DNA of 64,000 nt, taken from the NCBI GenBank assembly GCA_965249275.1, contig CBDFLQ010000007.1, positions 800,001 to 864,000 on the forward strand, read 5' to 3'. Origin of the DNA: Dehalococcoidia bacterium. Lineage in GTDB: Bacteria > Chloroflexota > Dehalococcoidia > Plut-88900. The position numbers were made by a program, and so were the translations under genes. The notes below the pieces were generated by a model, which saw only the letters and a program-made list of their open reading frames with translations, had not been told where the DNA came from and searched no databases. This document shows, in pieces, positions 3,206-41,656 of the stretch (position 1 is its first letter; each line of letters opens with the position of its first letter).

Positions 3206-4468
3206 CTAGGTGGTTGGGGCAATAGCCTCCACCGCGACACCCCGGACGTAAATCCCCCTAGTCCTTCTTTCGATAGTAGTGATGGCTATGAAGGCCAGGA
3301 AGCCGCCGGCCGCCACCGACAACACCCACTCGGGCCCGAACCTGTCCCCGAGCGCTCCATTGCCAAAGTTTGCGAAGGACATGATGCCTGCGGCGTGAAG
3401 GATGTAAATGCTGGTCACCCGGCCCCGTATTCCGTCCGGCACTACGGACTGGATGAGGATTGACGAGAGGATCATAAATCCCGCTTGAGAAGCGCCCATA
3501 AAGGCGGTGGCCAACATGGCGAGCGGAAGGGTCGGGGCGAACGCAAGGCCAAGAGGGCTGAGGCCACTCACGATCCCATTGATGAGAAGGAGCCTGCCCC
3601 TTCTGTGGGGTGTTGAGAGGGGAGCTATGACTAAGGCTATCAAAAGCGCCCCGACACCGACCGTCACGTTCATCATGCTGACGCCGAAGGCGTCTGTGCC
3701 GAGCTTGGTCTCGGAAATCACTGGGAGAAGCGACTCGAAGGACATGACGAGGGCGCAGTGGAAGATCACAAGAGCGAAGACGCGGACCAGTACCGGGTGT
3801 CGGTAGGCATAGATGAATCCCTCAGCCAGGTTCCGCAGGTGGCCTCGGGCCGATTCGATGACGCCGGTGGAACGGGTGTGGATACGCAAGACGAGGAAGA
3901 TAGCAAGGGCGTAGGCGGCCGAGGCCATTGCAAAGGCCCATCCGATGTCGAGCAGGGCCAATATCGGAGCGATGGCGCCCGGGCCCAGGGCACGGGTCCC
4001 GTGAAAGGCTGCGTTGATCAGAGCGTAGGCGTTTACAAGGTTTCTTCTCGGAACGAGGTTGGCAGTCAGTGACTCAAGACCTGCAACTTGAGTAGCCATG
4101 GCGCTTCCGGTGACGAAGGCTATCACCACCAGATGCCAAACCTGGACAAAGCCGAGCAGCACCAGGAGGGCTGTGCCAACGTGAATGAGTATCTGGAACC
4201 CCATCGCCCAGGCCAAAAGGTCACGGCGTACCATTCTGTCGGCCATGAAACCCGCGAAGACGGGGACGAGAACGTAGGGGATCATGGCGGCGAAAATGAC
4301 CAAGCCGGCGGAGGCGCTGGAATTGTTCTCGGCGAGGTCGTAGGCGAGCCAGCCTCGGGCTACGATTACGGCCCAGGCACCGGCGTCGGCGCTGAGGGCC
4401 GCAAACCAGAGGTGCCGAAAGTCTCGGTGGGCCAGGGCCGGAAGGAATCGGTTGGCGGTTAGCTGCAA
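3206..4468 (-). CDS. MFS transporter
   Basis: About 12 hydrophobic segments, ALAHRDFRHLW N-terminus, GFMADRMVRR motif A, IQSVVPDGIRGRV; TATAAT at 4506-4501 upstream. Confidence 0.88.
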   Translation of the reverse strand: MQLTANRFLPALAHRDFRHLWFAALSADAGAWAVIVARGWLAYDLAENNSSASAGLVIFAAMIPYVLVPVFAGFMADRMVRRDLLAWAMGFQILIHVGTALLVLLGFVQVWHLVVIAFVTGSAMATQVAGLESLTANLVPRRNLVNAYALINAAFHGTRALGPGAIAPILALLDIGWAFAMASAAYALAIFLVLRIHTRSTGVIESARGHLRNLAEGFIYAYRHPVLVRVFALVIFHCALVMSFESLLPVISETKLGTDAFGVSMMNVTVGVGALLIALVIAPLSTPHRRGRLLLINGIVSGLSPLGLAFAPTLPLAMLATAFMGASQAGFMILSSILIQSVVPDGIRGRVTSIYILHAAGIMSFANFGNGALGDRFGPEWVLSVAAGGFLAFIAITTIERRTRGIYVRGVAVEAIAPTT

Positions 4469-4600
4469 GGTTTCATGGTCCGGGTATGAGGGCTGGGGGC
4501 ATTATAGACCTTTGGGGTGGGGGGCGGCACAGCCTCGCAATGTCGCCGGGATATTCGGTTGTGGGTTGGTGTTTAAGGTCTTTTGTTTGTGTGGCGGGTT

Positions 4601-5028
4601 GGCGATGGAAGACGCTTGCTGGACGCTGCCCCCGTTCCTGTGGCTCGGGTACTCCGACGCTCTGGGGCAAGGCGTCCGGCCCGCTTTTACCGCTGCTGCG
4701 GCCTGTGGCCCTGTATACGCTGGACATGGGCAGGGACCGTCAGGGCCACCAGGTCCGAGCCCGACTCCGGGGGTTGGCTGCACCGCATAAGGGCGGTAAG
4801 GAGACTCGTCCAGCGTCCGGGTGGAGCCTCTTGCAGGCGTAATATGTCCAAGTTTGCCGGTGCGACCCGGAGTGCAGGGACCACCGGCTCCCGGCTTGAT
4901 TGAGCGGTCGGGGTACCGAGAGGGCCTCGGCGCCGGGCCTATCCGACCGCTATTCCGCTTAAAGGAGCGGCTTCTCCGTTAGGAGCCTCACATGGAACTA
5001 TAGCGAACCAGGGCGTCTTTCCATCGCC
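4601..5028. ncRNA. Candidate large structured non-coding element of unknown family
   Basis: Terminal complementarity 4601-4615/5013-5028, many internal stems, crossing pairings, no convincing ORF; see findings. Confidence 0.5.
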
Positions 5029-5079
5029 TGGGAGTCAGGGAAGGGGACACGGGGCCCGGTGGGGATGAGGAGATGGCGG

Positions 5080-5122
5080 TCCTCCGTAGGCGGATGTTCC
5101 ATCCTCCGTAGGCGGACGTTCC
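5080..5122. repeat. Tandem direct repeat (2 x 21 nt, period 22) with internal mini-hairpin
   Basis: tcctccgtaggcggatgttcc / tcctccgtaggcggacgttcc, one mismatch; each unit contains tccg-tagg-cgga. Confidence 0.85.
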
Positions 5123-5260
5123 GCTTTCGCTTGTGCCGCGGGCCTGCGCGAGGGCCGTTGGGATGGGCTGAGGCGTTGAGTCCTCGGGTGGGTCGGGTGG
5201 GCTTCCCTAGTGTTTGGTTCCTCCTTGGGTTTAGGGTGAGTGATTGGCCATTCAAGGGAG

Positions 5261-5290
5261 AATATAGTACATATGTACAAGTGTGGTCAA
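5261..5290 (-). promoter_or_regulatory. sigma70-like promoter overlapping a palindromic LexA-like operator
   Basis: Minus strand TTGACC-N18-TATATT; the spacer contains the perfect palindrome GTACATATGTAC (5267-5278), resembling the GAAC-N4-GTTC SOS box. Confidence 0.5.
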
Positions 5291-5330
5291 GGGGTTCGTG
5301 TCACATTTTAGAGGGGGGTACCCCCACCCC

Positions 5331-5496
5331 AGATCCCTCGCGGAGCCTCGGGATGACAGATGAGATGGAGTCGGTTGGAGTCGGACTGACGGGACGGATG
5401 GGCGGTGCGTGGGTCTCCCCTCGCTCGACCCTTCGACCGCGCTCAGGGTGAGCGGCCCCACCCTGGGGATGGATTCCGGCTCGGGGGCCGGGATGA
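5331..5496. repeat. Cluster of three different REP-like palindromic repeats
   Basis: agatccctcgcggagcctcgggatgaca (5331-5358); cgctcgacccttcgaccgcgctcagggtgagcg (5422-5454); tggattccggctcgggggccgggatga (5470-5496). Each is an imperfect hairpin resembling common extragenic repeat types. Confidence 0.65.
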
Positions 5497-5599
5497 AGAG
5501 GGGAGTGGAAGGGAGGTGTCGGAATATCGTTTGAAGTGGTTTTCGATGGGCCTTATACTCCGAGCTTGCCGGACGGTTGGGCCGGGGGAGGGACATGAT

Positions 5600-6310
5600 T
5601 TGGAAAACCTGATAGATATTCTGGAGTCGTTTAACCGGAAGGAGCGGTTTTATCTGCTCGCACAGGCCCTTCACGGGCATGGAGGCATTGAGAATCCGAG
5701 ATTTCAGATATCCGAGTCCTTCAGGTTGGACTTGGGTGAAGCAGTTGGGCTGCATGAACAAGGGATTACTATACCTAGCGATGCTTTTGTGGGGATGGAT
5801 TATCACCTGGATTCGATAGAAGGTAGTCTCGCCCTGACACATAAGGACAAATATCAGCACTATAACAAGAATAGAAAAGTGATTTTCGCCAATCTTGATG
5901 CCTCAGTTGCTGGAACACAACAAGATATTGATTTACTTGTAGCGTTCAAAGCTGAGAGCAAGTACCATTTGGTGCTTATAGAAGCCAAGGGATATTTGAG
6001 TTGGGATACACAGCAACTGTACTCCAAGGGGGAGCGGCTAAGACAAATCTTTGGCGAGAACGGAGATACATATTGTGACGATGTAGAACCACATTTCGTC
6101 ATGATGTCTGAGAACCAGCCTAAAATAGAAAATTGGCACGCTGACCGTCAACCTGCATGTTGGCCGAAATGGATGCGGAACAATAAAGGTGCACCCCTTC
6201 ACCTAACAATGTGTCTGCCAGCTAAAACCAATAAACGCAGAGTTGAGCGTTGTGATCGAGATGGAAATCCCGCAAAGTGTGAAGGGTATTTCCATTGCCC
6301 GTCAGGCTAA
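5600..6310 (+). CDS. Hypothetical protein with PD-(D/E)XK nuclease-like motif
   Basis: Likely TTG start at 5600 after GGAGGG; the upstream ORF extension runs through REP repeats. QQDIDLLVAF...LVLIEAKG motif; visibly AT-richer than neighbours. Confidence 0.65.
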   Translation: MENLIDILESFNRKERFYLLAQALHGHGGIENPRFQISESFRLDLGEAVGLHEQGITIPSDAFVGMDYHLDSIEGSLALTHKDKYQHYNKNRKVIFANLDASVAGTQQDIDLLVAFKAESKYHLVLIEAKGYLSWDTQQLYSKGERLRQIFGENGDTYCDDVEPHFVMMSENQPKIENWHADRQPACWPKWMRNNKGAPLHLTMCLPAKTNKRRVERCDRDGNPAKCEGYFHCPSG

Positions 6311-6360
6311 TCTTTGCCTATAGTCATGTCTGACGAGACAAAAACTGGGTCGCTGTAGCA

Positions 6361-7566
6361 ATGGAAAACAACACTGCCGAAGCCGTAGTCATCGGGGCGG
6401 GGATTGTGGGCAGCAGCATTACGCACTATCTCTCGGAGAAGGGGATGGGTGTGACACTGCTGGACAAGGGGTCGATCGCGGGTGGGGCCACGGGCAAGGC
6501 CACTGCGGTCATACGGATGCACTACACGAACCCCTGGGACTCGGCGATGGCGAAGATTGGCGGGGATGTTTACTCGAACTGGGGAGACCTGATCGGTGGG
6601 GAGAGCGGTTTCGTCAACTCGGGGTTTGTGTTCATTGTCGGGGAGGGCGAAGAGGAGAAGCTGCGGGCCAACGTGGACATCCTCCGACAGGAGGCCGGTA
6701 TAAACACCTACGCCCTGGACCCCGAGTTCCTTCAGGAGCTCCTGCCCGAATGGTACGTCGGAGACGTCGGGGCGGCGGCCTACGAGCCCGACAGCGGATA
6801 CGGCGACCCTCACTCCGCTGCAACGGGCTTCGTGCGGCGGGCGCAGGAGTTGGGAGCGGAGGTGTCGCAGGGAGAAGAGGTGCTGAGGATTATTGAGGAG
6901 GGGGGCCGGGTGACGGGGGTCGAGACTAGCAAGAGGACTATTTCAACGGAAAAGGTGGTCTTGGCGGGCGGAGCGTGGTCGAAGGGGTTGGGGGCCGGGG
7001 TGGGACTCGACCTGCCAATCAACTGTATGATGCTATCTATTGGGGTGCTGAAGAGGCCGCCGGTGCTGCACGGGAGTCATCCCGCCTGCATTGATGCGGC
7101 GAACGGCATCTATTTCAGGCCCGAGCCTGGAGAGTTGACCCTGCTCGGATTCAGCAGTGTCGTCGACAGGCATGAGTCCCCCGAGAACCTGGACCCCGAC
7201 AACTACGATACTGAGCCCGACATGAGATGGTCCCTGCGGACCAGCCGCAGGATCGCGTCCCGGATACCGGCGATGGAAGACGCCGCATGGGTGAGGTCGT
7301 GGAGTGGGGTGGACGGCAACACGCCGGACGGACACCTGATTCTGGATAAGGCGCCGGGAATAGATGGCTTGTACCTGGCGGTGGGGATGAGCGGCACGGG
7401 TTTCAAGGTCGGACCCGCGGTTGGCAAGTGCATGTCGGAGCTGATCGTGGATGGGAAAGCGTCGAGTGTCGACATCCGGCCCTTCCGGTTGGCTCGCTTT
7501 GAAGAGGGGGAGGTACTGGTGGGGAAGCATGAATACAACTACTATCTGTTCAAGCAGGATGAATAA
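6361..7566 (+). CDS. FAD-binding oxidoreductase (sarcosine oxidase beta/DadA-like)
   Basis: VIGAGIVG FAD motif, GATGKATA, TPDGHLIL, GMSGTGFKVGPAVG, PFRLARF. Confidence 0.88.
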   Translation: MENNTAEAVVIGAGIVGSSITHYLSEKGMGVTLLDKGSIAGGATGKATAVIRMHYTNPWDSAMAKIGGDVYSNWGDLIGGESGFVNSGFVFIVGEGEEEKLRANVDILRQEAGINTYALDPEFLQELLPEWYVGDVGAAAYEPDSGYGDPHSAATGFVRRAQELGAEVSQGEEVLRIIEEGGRVTGVETSKRTISTEKVVLAGGAWSKGLGAGVGLDLPINCMMLSIGVLKRPPVLHGSHPACIDAANGIYFRPEPGELTLLGFSSVVDRHESPENLDPDNYDTEPDMRWSLRTSRRIASRIPAMEDAAWVRSWSGVDGNTPDGHLILDKAPGIDGLYLAVGMSGTGFKVGPAVGKCMSELIVDGKASSVDIRPFRLARFEEGEVLVGKHEYNYYLFKQDE

Positions 7567-37585: not shown

Positions 37586-37614
37586 TAATTTACCGCCTTC
37601 AGTTTATCTTCTCT

Positions 37615-37757
37615 AAAAATACAAAACCCCCGGGGCGCAGCCCAAGGGATTTTTCAAGCCCGATCCAGTGGAGCGAAAGATCAGGTATTTGGCGAATCAC
37701 CTGGGCAGGCTGAACAATTAAGGCTCCGGGGAGCCGCCCGCCGTCTGCGGCGAACTA
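37615..37757 (-). promoter_or_regulatory. L10 leader RNA with attenuator-like hairpin
   Basis: Minus strand cgccgcagacggcgggcgg...ttaa...cctgcccagg between rplA and rplJ fits the L10-leader pattern; followed by a GC hairpin plus U-rich tail (cccttggg...cccggggg ttttgtattttt). Confidence 0.75.
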
Positions 37758-37798
37758 TTTAGTTGCGTTAAGTAACTAGGTTTGCCTCTTTAGCGGGA

Positions 37799-41313: not shown

Positions 41314-41388
41314 TGGAGCCCACAACCGGATTTGAACCGGTGACCCCGTTCTTACCAAGAACGTGCTCTACCACTGAGCTATGTGGGC
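41314..41388 (-). tRNA. tRNA-Thr(GGT)
   Basis: GCCCACATAGCTCAGTGGTAGAGC...CGTTC-TTGGTAA-GAACG...GGTTCAAATCC...GTGGGCTCCA. Confidence 0.95.
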
Positions 41389-41429
41389 CTACTGAATGCT
41401 CCTTTTCACACTATTATAGATTCTTTTGA

Positions 41430-41515
41430 TGGTGGAGGGGGCAGGATTCGAACCTGCGTAGCCTTTCGGCAGCGATTTTACAGACCGCCGGTTTTAACCG
41501 CTCACCCACCCCTCC
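41430..41515 (-). tRNA. tRNA-Tyr(GTA)
   Basis: GGAGGGG acceptor stem, CTGTAAA anticodon loop, long variable arm, GGTTCGAATCC, ends ACCA. Confidence 0.95.
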
Positions 41516-41580
41516 GCAATGACGTGCTCCTGTTTATGGCACCTGATGGATTTGTTTGTTGGAGGTTTTTTGACGCGGGT

Positions 41581-41656
41581 TGGAGCCCGAGAGGGGAGTC
41601 GAACCCGCTAACCTGCCGATTACAAATCGGCTGCGCTGCCATTGCGCCACTCGGGC
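41581..41656 (-). tRNA. tRNA-Thr(TGT)
   Basis: GCCCGAG acceptor, GCCGA-TTTGTAA-TCGGC anticodon arm, GGTTCGACTCC, ends CCA. Confidence 0.92.

Follow-up and report, generated by a model that had tools for sequence, protein, structure and literature searches.

A mobile, promoter-bearing repeat with a probable structured transcript in one genus of Dehalococcoidia

A segment at positions 4705–4888 of a 64,000-nucleotide stretch of a Dehalococcoidia bacterium genome (the window; assembly GCA_965249275.1, contig CBDFLQ010000007.1, positions 800,001–864,000 of the forward strand) was found to lie in the variable central domain of a non-coding repeat of about 680–810 bp, or about 740–870 bp for the element as a whole. 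The window copy of the repeat occupies approximately 4517–5331 on the minus strand. The repeat is likely to be a promoter-bearing mobile element with a structured transcript. The segment would then be the central domain in one copy of a non-coding transposable element that is restricted to the genus, is non-autonomous and resembles a miniature inverted-repeat transposable element (MITE) but is larger; this grade applies to the explanation as a whole. MITEs are usually under about 600 bp, which the element exceeds. The original prediction had described the segment as a duplicated module, with two stem-loops sharing a constant motif and loops that pair with the linker between them. The observation is real and its interpretation partly supported: stem-loop 2 and one crossing pair hold, as does the conserved, structured character of this non-coding domain.

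Copies, distribution and insertion sites

A BLAST-type search with window 4470–5260 as query was run against 61 genomes of the family and class. The stretch 4549–5226 recurred many times in the window's own genome (G000) and in all eight same-genus relatives (G001–G008), and the repeat was not found in the 52 other family or class genomes; the nine positive genomes all belong to genus g1. Within the window's own assembly, a BLAST query of 4301–6500 recovered about ten full-length copies and many partial ones, while the conserved 5′ module A (5123–5226, minus strand), used alone for the copy count, gave 54 copies with 72–98% identity. A covariance model, R1, built on this conserved 5′ domain and run on 151 sampled genomes of the class, matched five, all in genus g1 (G000 and four of four others of the genus). 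It matched neither of two genomes from two other genera of the same family. An exact-pattern scan of genome contigs gave at least 80 matches, all to genus members among the matches listed, and is uninformative on absence elsewhere.

Mapping of the 54 loci gave one module order on the window minus strand: promoter, module A, module B (5008–5078), central part (4623–5007), module D (4601–4622) and a C/A-rich 3′ tail (4549–4600) that is kept across subfamilies. The central domain occurs as at least nine sequence subfamilies with 13, 11, 10, 6, 5, 3, 2, 2 and 1 copies, and the segment belongs to the ten-copy one. Orthologous copies in G002 and G005 agree with the window copy in its unique flank and in modules D, B and A, and differ from it in the central domain. 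Such swaps, with flanks and conserved modules kept, are seen at G005:C1:1488159-1488990, G002:C1:600900-601731 and G005:C1:1116985-1119342. Because the central domain differs even between orthologous copies, RNA modules appear to have been exchanged between copies, and the comparison points to exchange after insertion. Modules A and B of the window copy are separated by a tandem pair of a 22-nt hairpin mini-insert (5080–5122, minus strand), which is missing from most copies (alignment of ten copies and module map). The 22-nt unit contains GGAGGA and is found elsewhere in the 3′ tail of other copies and in a hairpin (Hb, below) of another subfamily; judged by this distribution, it behaves like a mini-insertion.

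No match at the gathering score was obtained among 4227 Rfam models, and up to an E-value of 10 there were just chance-level matches with E above 1. The internal open reading frames (ORFs) of the window copy had no Pfam match, and no transposase gene was found inside it. A coding role is argued against because copies differ by frame-breaking indels of 1–2 nt, and the coding hypothesis was rejected on both counts. ORFs of 98–742 amino acids begin inside one subfamily and look like read-through of stop-poor sequence. Ideas of a group II intron, an integron or an rRNA leader were dropped, none being accompanied by any defining motif or Rfam match.

Imperfect inverted ends of 27 bp, named T5 and T3, flank 16 copies in G000 at a distance of 739–1199 bp, with 14 of the 16 pairs spanning 739–865 bp. 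A 5-bp target duplication is exact in nine of these pairs, agrees at four of five bases in two and at one or two bases in the remaining five. Past the T3 end, most copies have TTGAC at +6 to +10; its TTG (+6 to +8) is exact in 15 of 24 against a background of 1.3%, and a −10-like hexamer usually comes next. As TTGAC begins at +6, insertion is placed 5 bp upstream of a host −35 box and in a single orientation. The site of copy L053 is precisely empty in G003 and G001, where the flanks are joined with a single GCATT followed by TTGGAC-N17-TATAAT. The same site is filled in G002 and is filled with a different central domain in G005.

At the window locus, divergent MFS and DAO genes lie about 165–195 nt apart in G001, G003, G004, G007 and G008 (empty, five of eight relatives), and their spacer measures 1.3–2.3 kb in G000, G002, G005 and G006. 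The outer limits of the window copy were taken from this empty-site comparison and from an 11-nt inverted repeat (4513–4523 and 5321–5331) that marks its likely limits. The left limit falls at about 4516–4522, the relatives with the empty spacer aligning up to ACCTTTGGG, and homology to other copies covers approximately 4549–5316. The empty-spacer relatives have a TTGACA-N17-TAGATT promoter for the DAO gene, and the window is without it. The element was thus shown to be repeated and also mobile, given its terminal inverted repeats, its 5-bp target duplications and the empty sites of relatives.

The sole candidate parent, of about 2 kb, was an unrelated rve-type insertion sequence with its own ends and was rejected. 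The rve-type insertion sequence of locus L195 (G002:C1:658800-661800; 506–1850) carries a 423-amino-acid ORF and its own inverted ends and is inserted exactly between T5 and the −35 box, a position of the same kind as the element's own preference in host promoters.

Promoter motif and predicted RNA structure

The window copy carries a sigma70-type promoter pointing into the element (5261–5290, minus strand), with TTGACC at 5290–5285, an 18-nt spacer and TATATT at 5266–5261. It agrees with the consensus at 10 of 12 positions, and the promoter scan expected 0.2 such sites in shuffled sequence. A TTGAC-type −35 box, a spacer of 17 or 18 nt and TAnnnT, in the minus-strand sense of the window copy, are present in 53 of 53 copies, the 54th being truncated by a contig end. 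The motif is therefore conserved in each copy examined, and promoter activity is predicted. The minus strand was assigned as the RNA strand because the conserved promoter reads that way; the plus strand implied by the original prediction was given up, and no conserved plus-strand promoter was seen.

A Shine–Dalgarno (SD)-like AAGGAGG without a start codon behind it (5220–5226, minus strand) lies 29–36 nt past the −10 box. All 53 copies examined contain AGGAGG, although the promoter spacer and early leader vary between them. RNAalifold pairs it with the CUCCU in CGCCATCTCCTC, 125 nt downstream. Both partners are invariant and therefore give no covariation information on their pairing.

The central domain is predicted to be closed by a helix of 20–24 bp that joins module B (5′ strand, 5028–5008) to module D (3′ strand, 4601–4622) and was recognised in 52 of the 53 copies. 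No variation occurs in the outer 11 bp, while the inner pairs are subfamily-specific yet complementary (ACGCC/GGCGU, GGUCC/GGACC, AAGCCC/GGGCCU, CUGG/CCAG and GACUA/UAGUC). The 5′ helix behaves likewise, with CAGGGAAG/CUUCCCUG in place of GGGGGAAG/CUUCCCCC and pairing kept.

For the segment itself, a subfamily alignment of 41 copies in RNA orientation was used, ten from G000 and 31 from six same-genus genomes. The first consensus fold (RNAalifold on alignment A1) was set aside as distorted by 13 rows with a different 5′ part. The model given here, predicted on the minus strand, comprises stem-loop 2, the helices J, Ha and Hb, the loop–loop pair K1, stem-loop 1, a small hairpin at 4690–4701 and a crossing helix. 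Over the 41 copies, 95.3% of its cells are paired and 24 cells are compensatory, compared with 7.9 ± 2.1 in shuffles (none of 500 reached 24). The compensatory columns are located in J, Ha, K1, Hb and stem-loop 1. Within the subfamily they include CG 37/UA 4 in J, UA 22/CG 11 in Ha and CG 37/UA 3 in Hb.

J (4778–4781/4833–4836), Ha (4801–4807/4824–4830) and Hb (4782–4786/4793–4797) form a predicted three-way junction at 4778–4836, the layout of which is the same in four subfamilies with different stem sequences. The Ha stem reads GAGGCUC/GAGCCUC, GGGGAA/UUCCCC or GGGGCC/GGCCCC, and the Hb stem ACCGC/GCGGU, UCCGCC/GGCGGA, GCUGC/GCAGU or AUGCC/GGCAU, while the Ha loop CUGGA(C/U) is kept in four subfamilies. 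Stem-loop 2 (P2, 4856–4888; GCCGGTG 4856–4862 with CACCGGC 4882–4888) has 95.8% of its cells paired in the 41 copies. Its counterparts, read from the sequences, are GCCGCC/GGCGGC in subfamily g2 and GCCG/CGGC in g8; this stem-loop of the original prediction was thus kept, with a different stem sequence in other subfamilies and pairing intact. These comparisons across subfamilies consist of sequence reading and per-sequence folds and include no column-wise test. The MAFFT cross-subfamily alignment A2 was not used for pair counts because its stems are 1–2 columns out of register, and per-subfamily folds were used instead. The predicted helices were shown to be maintained with compensatory change.

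The stem-loop 1 region (4702–4756; GGCCCTG 4707–4713 with CAGGGCC 4741–4747) is less regular. Stem-loop 1 has 88.2% of its cells paired; four of the seven columns contain 6–12 cells each that do not pair. The crossing helix (4734–4738 with 4752–4756), at 99.5%, is better kept than stem-loop 1 and uses the GGACC of the first GCAGGGACC. The same region contains 4717–4725, with which the Ha-loop segment 4808–4816 probably pairs to form K1. In K1, 96.6% of cells are paired and one of nine columns covaries (UA 28, CG 5, UG 5, unpaired 3).

As the original prediction had it, GCAGGGACC stands at 4730–4738 and 4874–4882, and both GC-stemmed hairpins (4707–4713/4741–4747 and 4856–4862/4882–4888) and all of its 7–9-nt complementarities are present in the sequence. 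Compared with 500 dinucleotide-preserving shuffles of 4700–4895, complementary 7-mers are in excess (11 against 2.3 ± 2.0, with none of the 500 reaching 11), as are 8-mers (5 against 0.64). The same 9-mer does occur twice, but this is unremarkable: about 10% of 1000 shuffles have such a direct repeat. Nor is the motif constant, being exact in 28 of 41 copies at the first site but in 7 of 41 at the second, where GCGTAGACC stands in ten. Duplication of a module built on an unchanging motif is accordingly not supported; the second GCAGGGACC varies and the GGACC of the first is a helix strand.

Covariation had also been suggested as a test of the crossing pairs. It was seen, modestly and in one column, for 4717–4725/4808–4816 and was absent for the loop-2/linker pair 4865–4871/4816–4822, which decays to G–U runs in 13 of 41 copies. 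The suggested competitors (4621–4628/4811–4818 and 4687–4693/4793–4799) find scant support or none, or are at odds with conserved local hairpins; alternative and competitor pairs reach 84–90% paired cells, with many cells unpaired. As a whole, the structure first proposed has 91.9% of its cells paired in the 41 copies, against 30–38% with slid partners, but shows compensatory change in two pairs only.

Gene context, proposed mechanism and alternatives

The gene next downstream is co-oriented with the element in 40 of 54 copies (one a tRNA-Gly), convergent in 12 and unclassified in two. For 32 loci this was established from a same-strand Pfam match of the first substantial gene; the other 22 were re-examined on both strands and 15 scanned for tRNAs. 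No common function links the downstream genes (Lgt, a class I Glu/Gln-type tRNA synthetase, Asd, RibF, amidases, SulP, MFS and tRNA-Gly), and host genes retain their own −35 and −10 boxes after the element. In the window, the co-oriented downstream gene encodes an MFS transporter (3206–4468, minus strand; Pfam MFS_3 9e-38, MFS_1 3e-27). At locus L059 (G000:C6:80589-84190; 1215–1289), a copy immediately precedes, in the same orientation, a tRNA-Gly(tcc) gene having its own TTGACC-N18-TAATAT promoter.

We infer that the minus strand is transcribed, that the transcript reads through into the host gene and that the structure has a role in the element's transcript. Transcription would start at about 5254, pass through the element and, in three quarters of the copies, continue into the next gene. 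The transcript would consist, in order, of the SD-like AAGGAGG, the conserved 5′ domain, a variable central domain of about 310–540 nt closed by the 20–24 bp helix, and the C/A-rich tail. In the subfamily of the segment, the central domain is predicted to fold as several hairpins around the three-way junction. The fold may serve the transcript by processing at the long helix, by use of the SD-like site to protect the 5′ end, or by insulating the host mRNA. Candidate roles are those of an RNase III-type substrate for the closing helix and of a 5′ stabiliser for AAGGAGG.

Four runs of RNA or possibly of RNA, two of them labelled sponge metagenome, yielded contigs that match 4570–5196 and 5425–5538 at 88% identity or more. 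These contigs do not cover 4000–4569, 5197–5310 or 5539–5700 and are uninformative about those parts. No sequencing run contained as much as half of the sampled words.

A number of observations weigh against a mobile element with a structured transcript. The window copy is without T5/T3 ends and has no target duplication, and the last 30 nt at its 3′ side are unique to the locus. Its position is not upstream of a −35 box but between the two former boxes (−35 and −10) of the MFS promoter, abutting the −10 box. End-motif pattern scans of nine genomes found no transposase-bearing autonomous copy between T5 and T3, only short pairs. In 12 of 54 copies the element faces the 3′ end of a convergent gene. 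The strand assignment rests on the promoter motif; in pairs predicted on both strands, wobble cells lean weakly to the minus strand (47 G–U, against 28 on the plus strand), and alifold energies are similar on both. Neither strand nor ends nor true transcription can be read from the run contigs, which may also stem from DNA carry-over. Variation within the subfamily is low, and most pairs are therefore merely conserved; when the structure first proposed was tested, most measures were no better than in shuffles. Conservation of internal inverted repeats at the DNA level would, moreover, mimic covariation.

This last point leads to the alternative that survives best, although we consider it unlikely: that everything happens at the DNA level. 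The complementarities would be nested inverted repeats left by the element's history, or transposition hairpins, and the transcript would be incidental, with a fold that has no role. The element is indeed a transposon with inverted ends, and its mini-inserts and module shuffling indicate a mosaic history. Both strands pair about equally well, with similar alifold energies and a weak wobble bias, and single-sequence folds of 4600–4990 are unexceptional (z = −1.63 on the plus strand and −0.88 on the minus strand). Against this, all 53 copies examined have kept the promoter despite variable spacers and leaders, and internal helices that have no part at the transposon ends keep their pairing with different sequences across subfamilies. 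In the closing helix, by our own reading, minus-strand G–U variants occupy about 20 cells compared with about seven of the opposite, A–C kind.

In the other direction, the transcripts might constitute an undescribed class of large (about 650 nt) modular RNA carried on a transposon. The fixed scaffold would hold exchangeable central domains, of at least nine types, as specificity or function modules, acting in the targeting of insertion to sites beside promoters or in trans on other RNAs, and K1 would be part of the active fold. We regard this extension as improbable.

A more specific proposal, to which only a small chance is given, is that the transcript steers the movement of the element itself as a guide- or bridge-type RNA, with the variable loops as specificity segments and the enzyme supplied in trans. 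A conserved scaffold with a swappable variable domain would suit such an RNA, as would the strikingly specific insertion 5 bp upstream of TTGAC boxes in one orientation and the failure of the end-motif scans to find a transposase with matching ends. Near-identical central domains, however, are found at sites with unrelated flanks, and in 14 copies the longest matches to a copy's own flanks (7.5/7.9 nt) do not exceed those to the flanks of others (7.8/7.85 nt). No recombinase or TnpB-like ORF adjoins the copies, whose neighbours are housekeeping genes. Terminal inverted repeats and 5-bp duplications are typical of DDE-type cut-and-paste transposition and, to our knowledge, not of known RNA-guided recombinases.

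A cis-regulatory leader, riboswitch- or attenuator-like and uniting some 50 operons in a regulon under a common signal, is more doubtful still. It would explain why a long, structured and conserved sequence stands before the next gene, and in its orientation, in 40 of 54 copies. It does not explain why those genes share no function and keep their own −35 and −10 boxes after the element, why 12 copies are convergent with the next gene, or why presence differs between sister species at orthologous loci; it also lacks an Rfam match.

As originally envisaged, the segment would be an independent plus-strand RNA whose two equivalent loops, protein-binding or guide-like, have a constant motif in common and form pseudoknots or a switch with the linker; this reading has next to no probability left. 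Its hairpins and complementarities exist and exceed those of shuffles, and one crossing pair covaries. The plus strand, however, showed no conserved promoter, 7 of 41 copies have the second motif intact, pairing of loop 2 with the linker breaks down in 13 of 41, and the segment lies inside a longer repeat as one of its domains.

Taken as a promoter-bearing mobile element, the 54 or so copies amount to about 1.4% of the 2.9-Mb genome by our arithmetic. Each sets a near-consensus promoter motif and a predicted long structured leader before ordinary genes. The precision of insertion next to −35 boxes, seen where the ends are intact, is unusual, and the element would offer a natural system for the study of how mobile elements may rewire transcription without breaking genes. 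In the annotation of these uncultured Dehalococcoidia, it explains many long "empty" intergenic regions.

Other features of the window were noted in passing. A separate repeat family, termed module E (5328–5526), has about 80 BLAST matches in G000 and is often found just upstream of the element promoter; in its region, RNA-library contigs cover 5425–5538 with a summed depth of up to 267. Positions 5527–6360 are unique sequence, and a 301-amino-acid ORF at 5405–6310 (plus strand) has no Pfam match. An L10 leader (RF00557), scoring 44.1 bits where the gathering score is 44, and three minus-strand tRNA genes, at 37612–37768 and 41317–41656, are ordinary features.

Comparison with known systems

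The size and multi-domain make-up of the predicted transcript, several hundred nucleotides with a long-range closing helix, recall the large RNAs OLE, ROOL, GOLLD and HEARO. Compared with the general picture of those RNAs, the sequence described here is multi-copy, has transposon ends and its own promoter, and gives no Rfam match.

SD-like sequences at the 5′ end can act as mRNA stabilisers, a concept known as STAB-SD. By analogy, the strong SD-like AAGGAGG near the predicted 5′ end, with no start codon behind it, might have such a stabilising role, or the AGGAGG of the present element may have the invariant CUCCU as its pairing partner instead. One report states that RNase J1 is blocked by ribosomes at a strong SD (PMC5737220).

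Upstream regions that are highly similar, bear promoters and precede non-homologous genes have been described as putative mobile promoters in another report (PMC3575422). The carrier is defined in the present case by inverted ends, target duplications and empty sites, and it has a long, predicted structured leader.

MITEs that bear promoters are also known. Two articles name the Correia elements (CREE) of Neisseria, MITEAba12, BrickBuilt, QMITE1 and SonMITE_1, and describe Correia elements as lying mostly just upstream of genes and interacting with RNase III (PMC10969869, PMC2649163). The element resembles Correia and other promoter-bearing MITEs in being non-autonomous, multi-copy and mostly upstream of genes, with inverted ends and sigma70-like promoter motifs. 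Transcripts of Correia-type MITEs are described there as forming helices that RNase III can bind, to which the predicted long helix would correspond. A non-exhaustive search of the literature on mobile promoters and outward promoters in MITEs found nothing resembling the element.

Correia elements measure 100–160 bp, and the present element is about 5–8 times longer. Its promoter is one internal unit in every copy and is not formed at the ends, its predicted modular fold of about 650 nt has a swappable central domain, and it inserts 5 bp upstream of −35 hexamers with a 5-bp duplication. It is a new, unusually large promoter-bearing MITE-like element, distinguished from those known by its size, the promoter motif in every copy, the predicted structured transcript with a swappable core and the −35-proximal target.

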